From: Pseudomonadota bacterium
GTDB lineage: Bacteria > Pseudomonadota > Alphaproteobacteria > Rickettsiales > UBA1997
Direction of reading: 5' to 3'
DNA length: 53,764 nucleotides
Assembly: GCA_040384945.1 (NCBI GenBank)
Contig: JAZKII010000004.1
Location: forward strand, 12,654-66,417
The translations under genes and the position numbers were made by a program. Each line of letters opens with the position of its first letter. Within the stretch, counting starts at the first letter, position 1. Below are positions 19,023-50,426 of the stretch, piece after piece. A model generated the notes under the pieces. That model searched no databases and was not told the DNA's origin. It worked only from the letters and a program-made list of their open reading frames with translations.

Positions 19023-19045
19023 TGGTTGCGGGGGCTGGATTTGAA
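19023..19045 (-). repeat. att site: displaced 3' fragment of tRNA-fMet
   Basis: Identical to 43708-43730 (T-loop to CCA). Confidence 0.95.
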
Positions 19046-41188: not shown

Positions 41189-42250
41189 TCAGGAATTTTC
41201 TTTTAAAAGCCAGCGACGCACTCGGTCTGGAATGCTGTTTTCTGTAAGCTGCAGTGATCTTTCTAAGATTTTTAGTTTTTCTTCTTCGCCTAGATTTATT
41301 ATTTCGTCTTTCAATTTTTTTATCACAGCGTTGCTTTCAATTTGATCGCGCTTCTTGGCCGCTCCAAATATTGCTGCGGATATTGCTTTGTGCAAAGCTT
41401 CTGGTTCAGAAATTTTGCACTTTTGCCAGAAAAACGCCAAGGCTTCATTTTCTTGTCTTCTTGCCATATTTGTTTTTTCGCAGCCTTTTCTCTGAGTTTT
41501 TTTAATCATGTCTTTTCTGCTCAGGCTGGCAAAAAATTGCATCGCTTCAGATTCTTTATGAACAAACATTGGGTTAAGATAGTGATAGGCGCGATAGCAA
41601 TTTAGGCACTCTTTGTAGCTGGAAATTATATCAAGATTTAGAAATGAAACCAAATCTGCGTCCAGATTTTTAGGATCTTGAATCAAGTGAATATCAATTC
41701 CGTTTTGGCGGATCACCTTCACAAAACCATCTAGTTTGCTCATCAAAATTTCTAGCTTCACCCAAAGCAGAATTAGAAAGAGATAGCTGTAATTGTATTT
41801 TTTGCTGTCAAAGCCGGTCTTGTTAAGAAATTCAATAAAAGCTCCAATTCTTTTGCCTTCGGCAAAAAAACGTATGTCGTTTCTGGTGCGCGATTCGTAA
41901 AGATTACCGTCTCTTTGGCAGAGATTTTGGTGATTGGTTAATCTTTCCATAAAGTCTTGTAAAAGCTCATACGAGAAGAAGTCGCCGTTTGATATAATAT
42001 TGCGCTTTTGTTCAATGGACTCGAGATAGTTTGAGTAGCAAATCGCTTGATAAATGGATTTGATCAAATTTTCGTCACCCATTTCTTGCAGAGTTTTCTG
42101 GGTGAAGCGAATTTCAACGTCGATAGTTTTTAAAAGGCTTAGTTGGTTTTCAAAATTGAATTGGTGATTAAGTGGAGTTCTTTCAAAAATCTTATGAAGA
42201 TTGGATCCGTGATTTTTTAAAAAGTTTTCCATGGTGAATATAGGTGACAT
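41189..42250 (-). CDS. Hypothetical protein between integrase and alpA
   Basis: 353-aa open frame co-oriented with int/alpA; no family recognised. Confidence 0.7.
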   Translation of the reverse strand: MSPIFTMENFLKNHGSNLHKIFERTPLNHQFNFENQLSLLKTIDVEIRFTQKTLQEMGDENLIKSIYQAICYSNYLESIEQKRNIISNGDFFSYELLQDFMERLTNHQNLCQRDGNLYESRTRNDIRFFAEGKRIGAFIEFLNKTGFDSKKYNYSYLFLILLWVKLEILMSKLDGFVKVIRQNGIDIHLIQDPKNLDADLVSFLNLDIISSYKECLNCYRAYHYLNPMFVHKESEAMQFFASLSRKDMIKKTQRKGCEKTNMARRQENEALAFFWQKCKISEPEALHKAISAAIFGAAKKRDQIESNAVIKKLKDEIINLGEEEKLKILERSLQLTENSIPDRVRRWLLKENS

Positions 42251-42345: not shown

Positions 42346-43539
42346 TTATTCTTTGACCTTATCCAAATAGTCCGCCCACCACTGCATCATGGTTGTGCGT
42401 TGAGTCAGATATTCCGCCTTGTTGTAAGTACCACGAATTTTGTTTTCTTCAATATGAGAAAGTTGGCGCTCAACCCAGTCACCTTTAAAACCATTTTCGT
42501 TTAGGATAGTTGAACCTAAGTGCCGCACGCCGTGTGGAGTCATTTTTCCTTCGCTGAATTTTTTCATCATCTTGATCATCGAAACATCAGACATCGGGCG
42601 TTTGGTGCTGATGGCGCTTGGAAATAGCACTTCATAATTTCTGCTTATGTTTTGGATAGTCTTTAAAACTTCGATTGCTTGTGTTGAAAGTGGCACAAGG
42701 TGTTCACGCCTCATCTTCATGCGTTCTTGCGGAATGTGCCAAAGTTTTGCTTTGAGATTAAATTCTTCCCATCTGGCTTGTCGAACTTCGCCGGGTCTTT
42801 GCAAAGTCAGCAGCAGCAATTTAATTGAAAGAGCACTGAGGTTGAGCTTGTCGTACGAGTAAAGGTTGTGCAGAAAATCTGGCAGCTCTTTGTCTTTGAT
42901 ATGTTTGCGGTTTTGTTGTGTGTGCTGTCCTAAAATTCTGGCGCGTCCCAAGGCGGGATTTTCACTGCAAAGCGAAGACGAAATCGCATATTCAAAAATC
43001 TCAACGCAATATTGATTAATTCTTTGTGCAACCGTGATTGATCCGCGGCTTTCGATATCTTGTAAAATTTTAACAATGTGAGCGGCGCTGATTTCTTTGA
43101 TAGAAATATCACCAATCACCGGAAATACATCTTTTTCTAAACGGCTTTTGATATTCTTAGCATGTTTATCAGTCCAGTTCTGGCGGGTATACCAATCCTC
43201 TGCGATTAGGCGGAATGTATTTTTTGAAGTGGTAATGTTGCGCTGTCTTTTACTTTTCTTATTTTGGTTTGGGTTGATGCCATCTTTTAACGACTCTTTT
43301 ATTTCATTTCTAATCGCTCTCGCTTGAGCAGAGCCGATCTTTGGCGATTCAGTTCCATACTCGCCTATGGTGAAGATATTGTTCTTACCATCAAATTTAT
43401 ACGGCAATTGCCAAACCTTTTTACCACTCGGTCTTACGAGAAGCCTTAAGTTCCCATCATCAAACAGGAAATATTTTTTGTCTTTTGGTTTAGCTTCTCT
43501 GATTTCTCGATCAGTAAGTTTGCGATTAATCTTAGGCAT
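42346..43539 (-). CDS. P4-type tyrosine integrase with arm-binding domain
   Basis: KLTDREI..DDGNLRLLV..GKK N-domain; catalytic LQRPGE, MKMR, PHGVRH, QLSH, GTYN; start ATG 43539. Confidence 0.96.
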   Translation of the reverse strand: MPKINRKLTDREIREAKPKDKKYFLFDDGNLRLLVRPSGKKVWQLPYKFDGKNNIFTIGEYGTESPKIGSAQARAIRNEIKESLKDGINPNQNKKSKRQRNITTSKNTFRLIAEDWYTRQNWTDKHAKNIKSRLEKDVFPVIGDISIKEISAAHIVKILQDIESRGSITVAQRINQYCVEIFEYAISSSLCSENPALGRARILGQHTQQNRKHIKDKELPDFLHNLYSYDKLNLSALSIKLLLLTLQRPGEVRQARWEEFNLKAKLWHIPQERMKMRREHLVPLSTQAIEVLKTIQNISRNYEVLFPSAISTKRPMSDVSMIKMMKKFSEGKMTPHGVRHLGSTILNENGFKGDWVERQLSHIEENKIRGTYNKAEYLTQRTTMMQWWADYLDKVKE

Positions 43540-43562
43540 TTTTTCATGTATAAGTTTTTGGA

Positions 43563-43598
43563 TGTACAATTTTGTACATTACTTTGTACATGAAAAAA
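43563..43598 (+). promoter_or_regulatory. Putative integrase arm-type sites (right end)
   Basis: TGTACA at 43563, TTTGTACAT at 43571 and 43583, then GAAAAAA. Confidence 0.7.
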
Positions 43599-43707: not shown

Positions 43708-43784
43708 TGGTTGCGGGGGCTGGATTTGAACCAACGACCTTCAGGTTATGAGCCTGACAAGCTACCGGGCTGCTCTACCCCGCG
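43708..43784 (-). tRNA. tRNA-fMet (CAT), integration target
   Basis: CGCGGGGTAGAGCAGCCCGGTAGCTTGTCAGGCTCATAACCTGAAGGTCGTTGGTTCAAATCCAGCCCCCGCAACCA; C1:A72 mismatch of initiator tRNAs; encoded CCA. Confidence 0.97.
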
Positions 43785-43819
43785 ATATGACAAAAAGTGA
43801 AAGAACCTTTTTTTGAAGA

Positions 43820-43855
43820 GGGGCGCAACTTAGAGAGGGTGAAACGTAAATGCAA
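43820..43855 (-). promoter_or_regulatory. Sigma70-type promoter of tRNA-fMet
   Basis: TTGCAT-17 bp-TAAGTT followed by GC-rich discriminator GCGCCCC. Confidence 0.7.
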
Positions 43856-43912
43856 GTTACAAAATCGTCCTACATCAATTATTTTTCAAAATCATCTCGC
43901 ATCAATTACAAG

Positions 43913-45097
43913 TTACAAAATTGATTCAACGTCAATTATTTTTTCGATGCGGCGCAGCTTGGAAACATCGGACTCGTCGAGGAAATAATTTTGGGGTAAT
44001 TCGACTTTGATAATTTTTTTATCGGCGGCGATGACCAAAAAAACTTTGGTGAATTTTTCGCTGTTGATTGGTGCGGGATATTGGGAGAGAAAAGATTTGA
44101 TGCTGAAAAGTGGGTCGCGGTTTTTGATTATTATTTCAACTTTTGACAGAACTTTTTTTACAATTACTGGTTCACTTTGTTGTTGAGAAATTGGGGCTTT
44201 AGATTCGCCAGATGGGGCAGGGCGTTGATTATAGCCGCCACCATTATTGCCGTTGCGATTATAATTATTGCGCGCTGGTTGTTTTTTTATGTCTTCAAAA
44301 TCCTTGTCCTGGGCTTTGGTATTTTGAATAAATTCTTCGAGTTTTTTTACTTCGCGAATTAAAATTCTAACACCGCCATCATCTTTTTTAATCAGGCATT
44401 CCAGCGCGATAACGCTGCCATCAATTAAAATATCGCGGGCGGAAGTGATTAAAGCTTCATCAAAAATCATCGCTTCGAAAATTCCGTAAGGATCGGAAAT
44501 TGTCATGTAAGCGAAGCGTCCGCGTGGGCCGGAGCGATGTTTACTTCCGGCGACAACGCCGGCCATTTTTACTAAATTATTATCTTCAAGTTCATCGCGT
44601 TCGAGTTTGTCGGAAAAAATTACGCCGCGTTTTTTTAACTCGGAAACATTGTCGTCCAGCGGGTGTTCATTTAAGAAATATCCGAAGGCTTCGAACTCTT
44701 TTTGCAGGCGTTCGATTTTTGTCCAATCTTCAGTTTTCTTTAATTCAGGTTTGGCGTTAGCTTCTGGAAGGCCGCCAAATAAGCTCATTTGGTTGGAATT
44801 TGCGGCTTCGGTTTTTTGAGCAGAGTAGGCGGAAAGTATTTCAAAAGATTCTGCAACCTGGCGGCGGTTTTTTTGCAAGTCTTGAAATGCGCCGGCTTTG
44901 GCTAAGGCTTCGATTGATTTTTTATTGATTGAACGCGGGTCAAGGCGTTCGGCGAAATCGTAAATATCGGCAAATTTTCCGTTGACTTCACGTTCTTTAA
45001 TTGCAGTTTCCATCATCCCAAAACCAACCGCTTTAATAGCGCCGAGACCGAAGCGGATCGCAAATTTTTCTTGTGTGTTTTGATGGTCTTGCGACAT
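43913..45097 (-). CDS. dnaE: DNA polymerase III alpha subunit, C-terminal part only (HhH, clamp motif, OB fold, CTD)
   Basis: AIRFGLGAIKAVG, LAKAGAF, QMSLFG, EFEAFGYFLNEHPL, OB-fold ISDPYGIFEAMIF. No PHP or palm domain; in-frame stop at 45119-45121 upstream. Confidence 0.9.
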   Translation of the reverse strand: MSQDHQNTQEKFAIRFGLGAIKAVGFGMMETAIKEREVNGKFADIYDFAERLDPRSINKKSIEALAKAGAFQDLQKNRRQVAESFEILSAYSAQKTEAANSNQMSLFGGLPEANAKPELKKTEDWTKIERLQKEFEAFGYFLNEHPLDDNVSELKKRGVIFSDKLERDELEDNNLVKMAGVVAGSKHRSGPRGRFAYMTISDPYGIFEAMIFDEALITSARDILIDGSVIALECLIKKDDGGVRILIREVKKLEEFIQNTKAQDKDFEDIKKQPARNNYNRNGNNGGGYNQRPAPSGESKAPISQQQSEPVIVKKVLSKVEIIIKNRDPLFSIKSFLSQYPAPINSEKFTKVFLVIAADKKIIKVELPQNYFLDESDVSKLRRIEKIIDVESIL

Positions 45098-45124
45098 TTT
45101 TTTAAAAAACGATATTTTTTAATT

Positions 45125-45742
45125 ATGAAAAAAATTTCCAATAATTCATATAAAAGAGCGAATATAACTTACTCACACATTTACTTTGATGATGTTTTTA
45201 ATGAGGAAGAAATTGCGCGTGTTGTTGAATATTGCGAAAAACAGGAATTTCTAACTGCAACTGTTGGAAGTGACAGATCATTGAATGAAACGATCCGAAA
45301 ATCAAATGTAAATTTTCACAATCCAAATGAAGAAAATAACTGGATTTTTGAACGCTTAAACTGGGCGATCGAAAAGATGAATAGTGATTTTTATAATTTT
45401 GATTTGGATGGTTATGATTTTTTCCAATATTCGCAGTATAAAAGTTCGCAGCTAGGGAAATATGATTTGCATATAGATATGTTTATGGGCGATGAATTGC
45501 CAACAAATACAACCGGAACCAGGAAATTATCTTTAACGTTTTTGTTGAATGAACCAGGTGTTGATTTTGAAGGTGGAGATTTTCAGATTGTTTTAGCGCA
45601 GGAAAGTCAAGCGCAGACGATTGAGATGAAGAAAGGGCGGATTATTGCTTTTCCTTCGTTTGTTTTGCATCGTGTGACGCCAGTGACGAAGGGAGAGAGA
45701 AAGTCGATTGTGGTTTGGGTTGAAGGGCCGAAGTTTAAGTAG
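45125..45742 (+). CDS. 2OG-Fe(II) oxygenase (PKHD/prolyl-hydroxylase type)
   Basis: YDLHID (HxD), RKLSLT, FEGGDF, FPSFVLHRVTPVTKGERKS; start ATG 45125. Confidence 0.92.
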   Translation: MKKISNNSYKRANITYSHIYFDDVFNEEEIARVVEYCEKQEFLTATVGSDRSLNETIRKSNVNFHNPNEENNWIFERLNWAIEKMNSDFYNFDLDGYDFFQYSQYKSSQLGKYDLHIDMFMGDELPTNTTGTRKLSLTFLLNEPGVDFEGGDFQIVLAQESQAQTIEMKKGRIIAFPSFVLHRVTPVTKGERKSIVVWVEGPKFK

Positions 45743-45797
45743 GGAAGGGTTATAGTAATCGAGTACAGCACTTTTGAGCAGGACGAGGTCCTTGAGC

Positions 45798-45881
45798 AGG
45801 ACGGGGTTTGTAACCCCGTCCTCACGTTCATATAAAGTTAAATTGAACTGAAAATGTGGACTGGGTTACAAACCCAGTCCA
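45798..45881. repeat. Inverted pair of 25-bp REP-like palindromes (family B)
   Basis: AGGACGGGGTT-TGT-AACCCCGTCCT (45798-45822) and TGGACTGGGTT-ACA-AACCCAGTCCA (45857-45881). Confidence 0.85.
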
Positions 45882-45918: not shown

Positions 45919-46716
45919 TTAAGCAATAAAAACCAAAACCAAAACTCCCAGCACAATTCTATAAACACCGAACGGAATAAAATTGTGGCGGCTAACAAAA
46001 GTAATAAACCATTTTATCACCAAAATCGCTGAAAAAAAAGCTGATAAAAGTCCAATCAAAATAAGTTCAATATTTGCTCCGGTAAGCTCAGAAGAATTTT
46101 TTAAAAGATCATAAAAACTCGCCGCAGCAATTGTTGGAATTGCTAAAAAGAAAGAAAATTCCGTCGCAGTTTTGCGGTTTAATCCGAGCAAAAGCCCGCC
46201 AATAATAGTTGCGCCTGATCTTGAAACTCCGGGAATCATCGCCAGACATTGAAATAATCCAATGTAAAAAGCTGAAACCGGTTTGATATTATTAACATCA
46301 TCAACTTCTGATTTTTTTGGTTTTCTCTCAACTAAAATCATGATGATGCCGCCTAAAATTAAGCTGAATGCAATCACCAAATTTGAAAAAAGATATTCTT
46401 TGATAAATTTATGCAAAAGACCGCCAATTATGGCTGCAGGCAGGAAAGATAAAATCAGATTTAGCGTGAATTTTTGTTGTTCTTTTTGTTTTAAATTACA
46501 AATAACTGTGAGAATTTTTTGGCGATAAATCACGCAAATCGCAAGGATAGCGCCGAATTGAATTACGATTTCAAAGAGACTGTTTTTGATGGTTTGGAAA
46601 TCGATAATATAAGAAGAAATCAACAAGTGCGCAGTTGATGAAACCGGAATAAATTCTGTTAATCCTTCGACAATTCCAAGGAAAACAGCTTTAAATAAAT
46701 CAGCAAAATGAAGCAC
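45919..46716 (-). CDS. uppP: Undecaprenyl-diphosphatase UppP/BacA
   Basis: LGIVEGLTEFIPVSSTAHL, IQFGAILA, PGVSRSGATI, ATEFSFFLAIP; start moved to GTG 46716, downstream of the tRNA. Confidence 0.95.
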   Translation of the reverse strand: MLHFADLFKAVFLGIVEGLTEFIPVSSTAHLLISSYIIDFQTIKNSLFEIVIQFGAILAICVIYRQKILTVICNLKQKEQQKFTLNLILSFLPAAIIGGLLHKFIKEYLFSNLVIAFSLILGGIIMILVERKPKKSEVDDVNNIKPVSAFYIGLFQCLAMIPGVSRSGATIIGGLLLGLNRKTATEFSFFLAIPTIAAASFYDLLKNSSELTGANIELILIGLLSAFFSAILVIKWFITFVSRHNFIPFGVYRIVLGVLVLVFIA

Positions 46717-46737
46717 TTTTAATAGAGAAGAAAAAGA

Positions 46738-46824
46738 TGGTACCTCCGATCCGAATCGAACGGACACGTCCCAGGGGACAATAGATTTTGAGTCTATCGC
46801 GTCTACCAATTCCGCCACAGAGGC
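46738..46824 (-). tRNA. tRNA-Leu (CAA)
   Basis: GCCTCTGTGGCGGAATTGGTAGACGCGATAGACTCAAAATCTAT..GTTCGATTCGGATCGGAGGTACCA; long variable arm. Confidence 0.96.
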
Positions 46825-47417: not shown

Positions 47418-50400
47418 TTAATGATCGGAGCGGCCGTGTAGATTCTGTGTATTAACAACCGAATATCCGCTATTTGCAGATGGCATTTGTCCCGGAGTTT
47501 TTGTAATTGTTTGACCATCTGCTGTAAGCAGTGTTTTTGAGGATCTTTGTACCAACTCGCTTAAATCATCAACTCTAGTGCACATAAAACAGCCTTCTAA
47601 TTTTTTCTCCGGATGCTGTTTTTTAGCTTGTTCCATCCATGTTTGAAGAGCTTTCTGATTAAGAACACCATTATTCAAAAAATCAGATAGCGGAGTTCCA
47701 TGATCACCTTCTCGAGAAAAATCTTGTGTTTGGCCGATGTTGCGCCATCTTTCAAAAATGATGGTTTGTTGTGGGTTTATGAAATCAAAAATTTTTCCAT
47801 GAGTACGAAAATTAGGCATATTTTCATAAACCAATTCTTTAGTTAGAGGATTGGTAACTTTCATTCTTTTCATTGAATTAGAATAATAAGCTTTACCGGA
47901 AAATCCTGATTGTTCCAAAATTTGGGGAAGTAAAAATCCGCGCATCAATTTAAGAAACCCCTGCCCGCTATATTCTGGTACAGTTTGAGAAAGATCAAAA
48001 AATATACTGGTTGCCTTTCGACCTTCTTCATCAATTAACATTTTTGTTTTCTCGTCATTAATCGTAAAGCTCATCGCGGATAATGGATTCCCATCTTTAT
48101 CTTCCAAAATCATCGCAGTATAATCATTGGTCTTATTGGTATTTCCAAATTCTTCAGGATCTAGCGATGAACGTTTTTTCATTTCGGTTTCAAGCCAGCT
48201 GGTATCCATTTCAGATGGCACTGTTGTAGCATCCTTCTTTTTCAACAAGTCTTCAATCAAACGTCTTTGAGTTTCCCACGCGATTGGTCCTAGTAATTCA
48301 AGTGCTTTCGGACTGTTTTTGGCTGAGTTTTTACTGGTAATAATGTGAACAGATAATTCTTGGCCTTGATGTTTACAAGCTGGAAGCCTTTGATTATCAA
48401 GCTTTCTAAGCGGATGTTGCATTTCCTGAATATTAATTCTGGCCTCAAATAAAGCGGGCAAATCTTGCAAAAATTCTTGTGAAAGATTTGTAGTTACAAG
48501 CACAGGTACTTGCGGATTAAGATCTCTTAAGATTGGTCTTAGAGTTCGCTCATTGTGAATATGCGAATCTTGCGCGGCTAAAATTACGAATGGAATTTGA
48601 TAGTCATCAATTGGTTCAATTATATCAGAAGCACCAAACCTTCCTGAATTATGAAGTTTCGGATGATCGAAACTTTGGTGAACGCCCTTACCTTCAACAC
48701 GATGCGGCAAAATACAAAGAAGGCCTTTGCCGTTTAATTCTTCTAATCTTCTTTCCGAAATATTTCCGGCAGTTCCGGCAATAATATCAAATTCGAGATT
48801 TTCTTCATTTTCTAAAAAGGCTTGGCCAGCTTCATTCATAGCCATAATGCGTAATTCTGAAAATTTGTGATTCAAATCTTCGCTTTGTGTAACTGGAGCG
48901 GTGACTCTTTTTGAATAAGGATAATTTTCTTTAACTTTTTCGCCAAGATAAACTACGGAATCTTCGCACGACAAGGGAATCACAAAACTTTTTTCATACC
49001 AAACTTTTGGTGTAATTGTGTGAGGCAAATTTTTTTTCGGAATTTCTGCAACTTCTGCATTATTTCTGATTAATGAATTAACCACAATTGCCTGTGATCG
49101 ATCATCAAATTCAATGCCGGAAATATAATTCGGCTGAATAATAAAATTTTTAGCATGACCTGCCCTGACCTCTCCGCCTAGTATGGTTGGGATTCCATAT
49201 CTTTCGGCAACTTCTTTAATTCTCGCAACTTCATTATTATAAGCGCTATTGGCGCGAATAATATATCCACCGATTAAATCTTCTTCTTTATCAACGCTGA
49301 TTTTTGGTAAATTATTTCTCTTGCACAAAATTCCTAAAATCTTGTCTTTCTCAGATCTGGTAAGCATTTCATATTCAGGAATATATCCATCAATTCTTCT
49401 TACACTCATTTCATCTTCTTGGACAACAATATTTTCAACTACGACTGCAATTAGTTGCTCAGGCTTGATCACGCCACTTTGTAAAGCAGTCTCTAAAACT
49501 TCGGACGCATTATATCCGGTTTCAGATTGGAGATAACCTTCCAAACCAAGGATTAATTTTTCTCCGGCAAAATCAGGACGATAAGGTGAATCGATCGCGG
49601 AAAGCAATTGGCGAGGAAAATAAGTATGCAACCTGACTTGATCACCTTCTTGATATCGGCTTTTTATTTGATTGTAAGTCGCTGAATTTTCGCAATTTAA
49701 AACTCGTTGTAGTGGATGATCTTTCTTCTCTTCAAAAATTTCGATCATTTCTTGAACCTTTTCTGGTGCTGTTGGCCAAGTTGTTGAAAAAGTTTTTCCG
49801 GCATTTCCAGCATGAATATATTCAACAATTTCTCTTAAGCCAAATTGGTTTTCTGAGCCGTCAGAAAATCCGGCAATAATTCGTCTTTTATGATTTTCTG
49901 GTAAAGGTTTTACTCTGAAATAATCACGTACCAATTCAAGCTTTGGCTCAATTTGAACGCCACCGGCCATACAATGAATGTGGAAACCATTTTCAATCGC
50001 GCTAGCAATTTGTGCAGCGCCAGCTTTAGGTGACATATAGCCAATTCCACTGTGAGGATTAAAATTATTATGCACCACAATATCGCTGTATGGTGTTTTT
50101 TCTCTTATTCCATAATATTGTTCATGGCCATCAATATAAGGAAGAGCGATACAAAATTCGGAAGGGCGACCTTTATAATTAAGAGCGGTTTCAACAATGC
50201 TTTGCATCTTATTCGGGGTTTGATCTTTCGGCTTCTCAATAAAGCAAAGTGAAGTGGTTAAAACTGCAACTTTGTTGCGCTCAACTATTGATCCATCTTT
50301 TCTGGTAAAGGCGGGAATTTCTTCGGCTTGGGTACAATGTTTAATTTCTCCATCTTCTTGATCTAAATAAAAATATTTCCATTTAACTTGCTCGGGATGA

Positions 50401-50426
50401 ATTTTTAACAGATCCGGCCTAGACAT
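47418..50426 (-). CDS. S66 (LdcA/MccF-like) peptidase domain fused to a C-terminal GNAT-like domain
   Basis: AGG, IIAGFSD (Ser), ILGLEG (Glu), AGH (His); QTVPEYSGQGFLKLM acetyl-CoA-binding motif. Confidence 0.62.
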   Translation of the reverse strand: MSRPDLLKIHPEQVKWKYFYLDQEDGEIKHCTQAEEIPAFTRKDGSIVERNKVAVLTTSLCFIEKPKDQTPNKMQSIVETALNYKGRPSEFCIALPYIDGHEQYYGIREKTPYSDIVVHNNFNPHSGIGYMSPKAGAAQIASAIENGFHIHCMAGGVQIEPKLELVRDYFRVKPLPENHKRRIIAGFSDGSENQFGLREIVEYIHAGNAGKTFSTTWPTAPEKVQEMIEIFEEKKDHPLQRVLNCENSATYNQIKSRYQEGDQVRLHTYFPRQLLSAIDSPYRPDFAGEKLILGLEGYLQSETGYNASEVLETALQSGVIKPEQLIAVVVENIVVQEDEMSVRRIDGYIPEYEMLTRSEKDKILGILCKRNNLPKISVDKEEDLIGGYIIRANSAYNNEVARIKEVAERYGIPTILGGEVRAGHAKNFIIQPNYISGIEFDDRSQAIVVNSLIRNNAEVAEIPKKNLPHTITPKVWYEKSFVIPLSCEDSVVYLGEKVKENYPYSKRVTAPVTQSEDLNHKFSELRIMAMNEAGQAFLENEENLEFDIIAGTAGNISERRLEELNGKGLLCILPHRVEGKGVHQSFDHPKLHNSGRFGASDIIEPIDDYQIPFVILAAQDSHIHNERTLRPILRDLNPQVPVLVTTNLSQEFLQDLPALFEARINIQEMQHPLRKLDNQRLPACKHQGQELSVHIITSKNSAKNSPKALELLGPIAWETQRRLIEDLLKKKDATTVPSEMDTSWLETEMKKRSSLDPEEFGNTNKTNDYTAMILEDKDGNPLSAMSFTINDEKTKMLIDEEGRKATSIFFDLSQTVPEYSGQGFLKLMRGFLLPQILEQSGFSGKAYYSNSMKRMKVTNPLTKELVYENMPNFRTHGKIFDFINPQQTIIFERWRNIGQTQDFSREGDHGTPLSDFLNNGVLNQKALQTWMEQAKKQHPEKKLEGCFMCTRVDDLSELVQRSSKTLLTADGQTITKTPGQMPSANSGYSVVNTQNLHGRSDH

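Follow-up and report, generated by a model that had tools for sequence, protein, structure and literature searches.

A dnaE gene divided into two intein-less genes in freshwater alphaproteobacteria

The beta-prime subunit of RNA polymerase is split between the genes rpoC1 and rpoC2 in cyanobacteria and plastids, and the family-B DNA polymerase of Methanothermobacter thermautotrophicus was reportedly found by Kelman and colleagues in 1999 to be divided between two genes with no intein. For DnaE, the alpha subunit of the bacterial replicase DNA polymerase III (Pol III), the accessible text of a survey of about 2000 genomes describes a single chain except in cyanobacteria, the two halves of which are ligated by an intein (PMC3919608). 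According to the same text, other fragmented dnaE genes were mostly attributed to frameshifts, some of them likely sequencing or assembly errors, and fragmented genes were rebuilt where close relatives were intact (PMC3919608). Here, a dnaE gene in two pieces is described from a stretch of 53,764 nucleotides, hereafter called the window, of the genome of a Pseudomonadota bacterium (assembly GCA_040384945.1, contig JAZKII010000004.1, positions 12,654 to 66,417; Alphaproteobacteria, Rickettsiales, UBA1997), in which the C-terminal third of DnaE, the C piece, is a gene of its own, with the remainder, the N piece, encoded on another contig.

The closest described system is the split DnaE of cyanobacteria (NF007079, NF005616; Caspi et al., 2003, as cited in the accessible text of PMC3919608), equally a DnaE1-type alpha subunit encoded by two genes far apart in the genome, the N half measuring about 800-870 and the C half about 400-450 amino acids; its halves, however, carry intein fragments and are ligated into one chain, whereas no intein fragments are found here and the break lies about 75-110 residues further downstream. 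With the single-chain DnaE1 of Escherichia coli (5fku, 2hnh) and Thermus aquaticus (2hpi) all domains, their order, the catalytic aspartates and the clamp motif are shared, but the chain is interrupted at a site equivalent to E. coli residues 825/827. The Methanothermobacter enzyme is likewise a replicative-type polymerase composed of two polypeptides that assemble non-covalently, as is proposed here, although it belongs to family B rather than C and to another domain of life and has an unrelated split site. The division of rpoC is equally an ancient, clade-wide and intein-less fission of an essential polymerase subunit that is stably inherited, yet it concerns an RNA polymerase and its two genes have remained adjacent in the original order, whereas the dnaE pieces are dispersed. 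By analogy with these two systems, the locus may be classed as an intein-less, non-covalent fission of an essential polymerase. The fragmented NrdA of a phage, as presented in the accessible part of PMC3045599, is another essential enzyme encoded by two genes and reassembled without ligation, as proposed here; in that case a mobile element made the split and supplied assembly domains, neither of which is seen at the dnaE break. No published description of an intein-less split dnaE was found in a literature search that returned intein-mediated cases only and had subscription journals and supplements outside its reach.

One DnaE encoded by two genes

The C piece is an uninterrupted open reading frame (ORF) of 394 amino acids on the minus strand (43913..45097; stop codon 43913-43915), as listed among the ORFs of the window. 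A first-pass annotation made from the letters of the window had described it as starting at its own ATG just before the motif AIRFGLGAIK, which agrees with the sequence; the translation opens with MSQDHQNTQEKFAIRFGLGAIK. The end coordinate given there, 45121, is the end of an in-frame TAA (45119-45121), not of the ORF; this TAA is the eighth codon upstream, as claimed, and closes the frame with seven sense codons in front of the ATG. A spacer of only 27 nucleotides (45098..45124) separates the ATG from a divergently transcribed oxygenase gene, and the same spacer recurs with one or two changes in three related loci (L003, L029, L030).

The ORF corresponds to the C-terminal third of DnaE, from within the tip-of-fingers onwards, and contains no other sequence. 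The Pol III alpha parts that had been recognised on it, namely the helix-hairpin-helix (HhH) region, the clamp motif, the OB fold and the C-terminal domain, could all be confirmed. The HhH region, which binds double-stranded DNA, occupies residues 8-80 (44858..45076, minus strand; Pfam PF14579 HHH_6, E 1.1e-20). The beta-clamp binding motif QMSLF at residues 103-107 (44777..44791, minus strand) is aligned to residues 920-924 of PDB chain 5fku_A, the E. coli Pol III alpha subunit. The OB fold at residues 176-253 (44339..44572, minus strand; Pfam PF01336, E 4.2e-07) aligns with its E. coli counterpart as far as residue 1076. HHH_6 and OB are the only Pfam domains of the C piece; the C-terminal domain at about residues 310-394 (43916..44170, minus strand) is recognised because the alignment to the NCBIfam DnaE equivalog NF004226, in which C-piece residues 5-377 correspond to profile positions 815-1128 of 1146, extends to position 1128. 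A low-complexity linker rich in N, G and Q precedes this domain, and in an alignment of 38 C pieces the domain is conserved and the linker variable. By analogy with E. coli residues 1079-1160, as delimited in the accessible text of PMC4703070, the C-terminal domain is expected to bind tau.

PHP and palm sequences are absent from the window, as had been observed, and the N-terminal part of dnaE was found elsewhere in the same genome (here G000; 109 contigs, 95.8% complete; the window is G000:C4:12654-66417). It is an ORF of 829 amino acids on contig C83 (G000:C83:19636-22125) with PHP, palm, thumb and fingers, which terminates with ...PPSLNKSEAYFSVEKI at its own stop codon, a few residues past the PPS/DxN motif. 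Its Pfam domains are PHP (PF02811, E 1.5e-40), the palm (PF07733, DNA_pol3_alpha, E 4.6e-100) and the fingers (PF17657, E 4.7e-67); it matches PDB entry 2hnh at E 2e-220 and reaches 1209 bits against the NF004226 cut-off of 1002, compared to 188 bits for the C piece alone. Aligned to E. coli DnaE, the N piece covers residues 6-825 and the C piece residues 827-1076; on NF004226 the respective positions are 6-819 and 815-1128. As these coverages abut, the two ORFs sum to one complete DnaE with neither gap nor insert, and the domain set of a DnaE1-type alpha subunit is complete across two polypeptides instead of residing on the usual single one.

There is also no second copy that could replace the pair. 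The palm family PF07733 has a single match in the whole of G000, the one on contig C83, and one match each in all five of five well-assembled relatives (6-60 contigs, 97-98% complete), in frames of 830-868 amino acids; neither a full-length dnaE nor another C-family polymerase was detected by this search in any of the six genomes. The replisome partners dnaN and dnaX are present.

The position of the break can be read against the rigid bodies into which E. coli alpha is divided in the accessible text of PMC4703070: PHP (1-280), palm-fingers (281-432 and 510-810), thumb (433-509), tip-of-fingers (811-928) with DNA contacts at K831-K881 and the clamp motif at 920-925, and a tail (929-1160) composed of the OB domain (960-1071) and the tau-binding domain (1079-1160). 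With these boundaries, the cut falls within the tip-of-fingers body, 15 residues from its start; one strand of this body belongs to the N piece, and the rest, including DNA contacts and clamp motif, to the C piece, together with the whole tail. The cyanobacterial intein site lies earlier, as had been stated: in NF005616, the model of the cyanobacterial C half, N-piece residues 753-825 align to positions 34-106 and the C piece starts at position 109.

No member of an intein or Hint family was detected in either piece by Pfam at E<=1, which extends to the N half what had been noticed for the C piece; at this threshold the N piece shows PHP, DNA_pol3_alpha and finger, the C piece HHH_6 and OB, and one match to BBIP10 (E 0.7) is at chance level. 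The termini are short. Among 25 N pieces, 24 stop 0-4 residues past the strand F-x-[VI]-E-x-[IVL] and one (G007) has a tail of 11 residues, and in every C piece scanned (53 loci) the initial ATG precedes AIRFGLGAIK by 1-16 residues and has a stop codon a short way upstream. Full-length sisters in the same family have a lengthened loop of 20-60 residues exactly at the break, for example ...VERIDMVGEEDKKVKRYHEDKELAVRYGL..., and the deep-branching split genera retain recognisable halves of it, the N piece ending in ...VEKIMIND-stop and the C piece beginning with M-IEVKKYDSQGQELAIRFGL...; equally, deep-branching C pieces begin with ...VKKYDNNGKELAIRFGL, which matches ...VKRYHEDKELAVRYGL in the sister loop. 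Since both ends match halves of this loop, the break is a plain cut in a variable loop, as the first reading of the window had placed it; because the short terminal tails align to the sisters' own loop, there is no room for intein fragments, and it follows from the lack of an intein that the pieces are not ligated.

Distribution, age and reality of the split

A survey of 126 genomes of the family was queried separately with either piece. The C piece found a match in 115 genomes, 91 of which, distributed over ten genera (g1, which includes G000, g18, g19, g20, g23, g27, g28, g30, g31 and g33), hold it in frames of at most 452 amino acids; the other 24, from six sister genera (g21, g22, g25, g26, g29 and g32), have a full-length dnaE of 1205-1383 amino acids apart from cuts by contig ends. 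Correspondingly, the N piece found a match in 114 genomes, in 90 of them in frames of at most 925 amino acids and in 24 in the six full-length genera; where no contig end interrupts them, the N-piece frames stop at query residues 827-829. A further genus, g24, is represented only through its N piece. An apparent split in place in G025 (frames of 841 and 450 amino acids) was discarded as a run of ten N inside a continuous full-length gene. The relatives derive mostly from metagenome bins of lakes and other fresh waters. The family UBA1997, with which we infer the surveyed family to be identical, is presented as freshwater epibionts of cryptophyte algae in a preprint whose main text, in its accessible part, does not contain the words 'dnaE', 'polymerase' or 'split' (10.1101/2023.01.31.526412).

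Outside the family the gene is intact in the genomes sampled. In all 16 of the 16 other families sampled first dnaE is full-length. In a sample of the order (251 genomes at least 90% complete, with 106 left out of the matches listed), the frames among the matches listed outside the split genera measure 1068-1486 amino acids, the lower value belonging to G142, with the exception of frames at contig ends or N runs, of G156 (965 amino acids) and of G323 (856 amino acids). The short frames of G298 and G212 outside the clade were rejected as splits, being contig ends, and those of G189, G248, G264 and G318 are, judging from coordinates, close to contig ends. A search of representative proteins returned 8608 matches at E<=1e-3, of which the best 150 were considered and 23 of these, 349-406 amino acids long, inspected; clusters of the split clade aside, 21 of the 23 were rejected as independent splits and read as truncated or faulty gene calls, 19 having the PPDxN...F-x-V-E strand continuous with the following motif and two (P0035, P0120) opening with unrelated sequence. 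Only P0013 and P0014 begin like split C pieces.

In a maximum likelihood tree built from 48 rows of the N region (LG+G4, quick search), all 25 split rows form one clade with a Shimodaira-Hasegawa-like approximate likelihood ratio support of 99, and the sister group consists of ten full-length rows of the family. A clade of all split rows points to one fission event. C-piece identity within this clade drops to 43%, and for this reason the fission is old. The search for the same split in related genomes suggested by the first-pass annotation has thereby led to a clade of ten genera and 91 genomes.

The junction itself is present in assembled reads. A Logan contig of 2088 nucleotides from run X1 covers window positions 43729-45800 with 0 differences, independent only as to the assembler since X1 may be the source sample, and a contig of 578 nucleotides from run X4, which belongs to a different study, covers 44951-45522 with 33 differences and bridges the start of the ORF, as does the X1 contig. 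The separation of the two genes can be followed on eight genomes in which both pieces lie on one contig, in eight different arrangements. The pieces are about 1.05 Mb apart on a contig of 1.225 Mb in G115, 58 kb apart with N before C in G105, 74 kb apart with C before N in G004, 39 kb and 79 kb apart on opposite strands in G138 and G123, 7.7 kb apart in G113, and divergent neighbours at a distance of 170 bp in G133. In G021 (L063, G021:C34, 1504-5154, minus strand) uppP, C piece, N piece and mfd follow each other on one strand, and the stop codon of the C piece and the start codon of the N piece form the junction TAAATG; this permuted, translationally coupled order is probably secondary because G021 is nested inside genus g1. 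The ancestral order, C directly behind N, occurs in none of the eight genomes, and as order, orientation and distance vary among genomes, an intact N-C gene could not be restored by any one deletion or inversion. The split does not stem from faulty assembly.

Strong purifying selection acts on the two pieces alike. The ratio of nonsynonymous to synonymous substitution rates (dN/dS) of the C piece against the G000 copy is 0.061-0.072 at dS 0.38-0.51 in three unsaturated close pairs and 0.10-0.16 in nine deeper pairs, one further pair being saturated; for the N piece it is 0.053 at dS 0.46 and 0.06-0.10 in twelve deeper pairs. In all 25 N pieces the residues D411, D413 and D567 in the palm motifs PDFDIDF and FDFLGL are invariant, which from the alignment and the roles of the residues we take to correspond to the catalytic aspartates of E. 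coli. In the clamp motif, all 38 C pieces aligned have Q103 and F107, and M104 and S105 are kept in at least 90% of them. The strands that flank the break are among the best-conserved parts, with A13, I14, R15, F16 and L18 invariant in the C piece and F824 and E827 invariant in the N piece.

Proposed assembly of the two chains and competing explanations

The most plausible explanation, to which a probability of roughly 0.85 can be assigned, is a two-chain Pol III alpha subunit that originated by dnaE fission in the ancestor of the clade and whose pieces assemble non-covalently. Fission would have taken place in the ancestor of at least ten genera of freshwater, small-genome alphaproteobacteria, in a loop between two beta-strands that forms the hinge between the palm-fingers body and the fingers tip and that had become longer in the family beforehand. 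The first piece (829 amino acids; PHP, palm with the catalytic aspartates, thumb and fingers) would provide catalysis, and the second (394 amino acids; HhH tip, beta-clamp motif, OB fold and tau-binding domain) would provide the tether to clamp, DNA and clamp loader. Expressed from loci that are unlinked or variably linked, with the C piece usually coupled to the end of uppP, the two chains would assemble by pairing of the last strand of the first piece (about residues 822-826, within an interface at 781-829) with the first strand of the second piece (residues 13-17, in AIRFGLGAIK), which would restore the alpha fold.

A predicted complex is consistent with such an assembly. Co-folding of N-piece residues 556-829 (25-row alignment) with C-piece residues 1-270 (38-row alignment), a check that had been proposed for the two halves, gave a score of 0.79 (0.80, 0.79 and 0.79 in the individual runs) versus 0.00 for the best of three controls; in calibration, 58 of 80 solved complexes attained this mark, as did 2 of 110 mismatched pairs, counts that hold only roughly because the author's own alignments were used. 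The runs agree in at least 88% of contacts, the partner pLDDT (predicted local distance difference test) is at least 81, and the interface comprises 133-140 contacts. On the N piece the predicted interface spans 781-829 and is concentrated in 810-829; on the C piece it comprises 10-22, 26-36 and 65-74. C-piece residues 10-22, the first strand, are paired with the N piece in the model; the tightest pairs are formed between N 810-826 and C 13-17, the two strands flanking the cut, and this modelled pairing between the chains is what the intact alpha fold predicts.

Several observations weigh against the two-chain explanation or limit it. The co-fold may have passed from the model's memory of single-chain DnaE, as structures of the latter are solved, and it indicates likeness of fold, not binding; physical assembly, stoichiometry and activity of a two-chain alpha are what we infer. 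Twelve of the 126 family genomes are without a match to the N piece, and five bins among these twelve (G013, 94%; G101, 98%; G110, G132 and G009; 71-98% complete) hold a C piece and no PF07733 match anywhere, probably through binning loss of the contig that carries the catalytic half. Co-occurrence of the two pieces is thus not seen in every genome of the family, and every genome is a metagenome bin. Four C-piece matches (G102:C71, G093:C49, G108:C34 and G066:C15) are interrupted by one to three internal stops, and the C piece of L054 (3001-4236) lies in two ORFs. In G000 itself, the coupling of the C piece to uppP has been lost by the intervening oxygenase gene, and neither a promoter nor a Shine-Dalgarno sequence is recognisable in the 27-nucleotide spacer in this genome; a scan for consensus promoters yielded 5 promoter-like sites versus 4.8 expected by chance, with none upstream of the C-piece ORF. 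Furthermore, a scaffold gap of ten N lies inside a palindromic repeat 42 nucleotides past the N-piece stop of G000; 24 further N pieces, in which N runs are absent, terminate at the same position and so confirm the stop.

The strongest competing explanation is that the N piece works as a core polymerase on its own, with the C piece as a separate, exchangeable adaptor to clamp, DNA and tau that makes only transient contact. The split does part catalysis from clamp and tau contacts exactly at the hinge; the accessible text of PMC4703070 fits palm-fingers, tip-of-fingers and tail as separate rigid bodies and gives a tail rotation of 35 degrees. The genes are also unlinked and stand under different upstream genes (uppP and an OmpH-like gene), so that equal dosage is not built in. 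The predicted interface is, however, extensive and confident, with its 133-140 contacts and a strand pairing like that of the intact fold; in both pieces conservation is among the highest in the terminal strands (A13, I14, R15, F16 and L18; F824 and E827), and G021 couples both genes by the TAAATG junction, on account of which an adaptor in transient contact seems improbable.

A rejoining of the pieces by other means than a recognisable intein, that is by an unrecognised ligase, by trans-splicing or by programmed DNA rearrangement, has to be considered since DnaE is the classic host of a split intein in cyanobacteria (PMC3919608, accessible text) and a missing Pfam match is no proof. Nevertheless, tails of 0-4 residues (11 in one of 25) and of 1-16 residues that align to the sister loop leave no room for such elements, no intein family is matched at E<=1 in either piece, and loci of varied order and orientation (C before N, divergent, 7.7 kb to about 1 Mb apart) are not rebuilt by a single deletion or inversion, which renders rejoining very improbable. 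An artefact or decay, be it misassembly, a sequencing frameshift or the persisting fragments of a dying gene, is hardly credible even though all data are metagenome bins and look-alikes do occur (the ten-N run of G025, the contig ends of G298 and G212), given the same boundary, start and stop codons included, in 91 genomes from numerous studies, pieces far apart on single long contigs including one of 1.225 Mb, a dN/dS of 0.05-0.07 for both halves in close pairs, no other replicative polymerase and a bridging contig from a second study; the redundant fragment and the misassembly that the first-pass annotation had offered as alternatives are excluded by the checks run. Its preferred reading, a two-subunit polymerase assembled non-covalently, is supported by them, with assembly and joint activity as what they would imply.

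Gene neighbourhood and meaning of the split

The neighbour upstream of the C piece is, as had been stated, divergent; it encodes a 2OG-Fe(II) oxygenase (45125..45742, plus strand; Pfam PF13640, E 9.1e-17) and, in inverted orientation, separates uppP from the C piece in the sub-lineage of the window alone, in four of 34 related loci (L028, L029, L030 and L032). Beyond it follows uppP/bacA, encoding undecaprenyl-diphosphatase (45919..46818, minus strand; Pfam BacA, E 1e-83), the listed ORF of which overlaps with its 5' end a tRNA-Leu(CAA) (46738..46824, ARAGORN); because of this overlap and of a BacA match that begins at residue 44, the true start of uppP is located downstream of 46818. In 28 of the 34 loci uppP directly abuts the C piece, ending 0-8 nucleotides before its ATG or overlapping it, one locus having a gap of 80 nucleotides; two loci have another gene upstream. 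The succession of uppP and C piece is also found in the deep-branching genera g30 and g20, which dates this linkage to the base of the split clade. Upstream of the N piece, an OmpH-like gene is found in g30, g20, g19 and several g1 genomes, and mfd lies downstream of the N piece in seven of 14 g1 loci. Neither uppP nor mfd adjoins dnaE in any of ten full-length sister loci or of 15 loci of other families; as the full-length sisters show neither neighbour of the split clade, fission came with relocation. An origin by tandem duplication (uppP-[N-C][N-C]-mfd with loss of the outer parts), to which the gene order of G021 had given rise, was considered and found unsupported, since G021 is nested in g1 and the full-length loci are without uppP or mfd.

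Directly downstream of the C piece a tRNA-Met(CAT) is encoded (43708..43784, minus strand; ARAGORN), adjoined by a tyrosine integrase (42346..43569). The 23-nucleotide 3' end of this tRNA (43708-43730) is repeated exactly at window positions 19023-19045, so that, together with the adjacent integrase, an integrated island of about 24.7 kb (19023-43730) can be delimited directly downstream of the C piece. In relatives, other integrases with 60% or 98% identity are found at the same tRNA. In one contig from run X1 (depth 11.3), window position 45212 is connected back to position 43708 through 36 other letters, a joint that may involve the tRNA/att repeat or a variant strain. The ORFs 47418-50426 (minus strand; 1002 amino acids) and 41189-42250 (minus strand; 353 amino acids, inside the island) match no Pfam family at E<=0.01.

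Behind the stop codon of the N piece, a nested palindromic repeat of about 120 bp is located (G000:C83:22127-22250), and another is present at about position 1618-1700 of the window (C4:14271). The 15-nucleotide core of this repeat has 69 occurrences, both arms counted, over the 109 contigs, often at contig ends or beside runs of ten N, and G000 holds 29 N runs in total. The repeat looks like a miniature inverted-repeat transposable element or a repetitive extragenic palindrome, reminiscent of the Rickettsia palindromic elements, and it fragments the assembly.

Beyond the two-chain alpha as such, it is conceivable, if rather unlikely, that the clade possesses the first natural bacterial replicase with an alpha subunit of two freely exchangeable chains joined only via a strand-swap hinge. 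If so, release, recycling on the lagging strand or exchange of the core would proceed by dissociation of subunits and not by an intramolecular swing of the tail of the E. coli type, and the dosage of the C piece would be set by translational coupling to the cell-wall gene uppP.

The division of dnaE has consequences for annotation and application as well. Annotation pipelines and marker-gene sets will score such genomes as having a truncated or missing dnaE, as the 188 bits of the C piece against a cut-off of 1002 and the five bins without a catalytic half illustrate. The locus offers a natural design for splitting DnaE, at the equivalent of E. coli 825/827, and a system in which the catalytic core and the clamp- and tau-binding module might be studied or regulated as separate subunits. 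Pol III alpha is an essential protein, and a split that is clade-wide, under selection and free of inteins indicates that its fold can withstand a lasting break in the chain at the hinge between palm-fingers and tip-of-fingers. For the organisms themselves, the split is a synapomorphy that can serve as a marker of a large freshwater clade.

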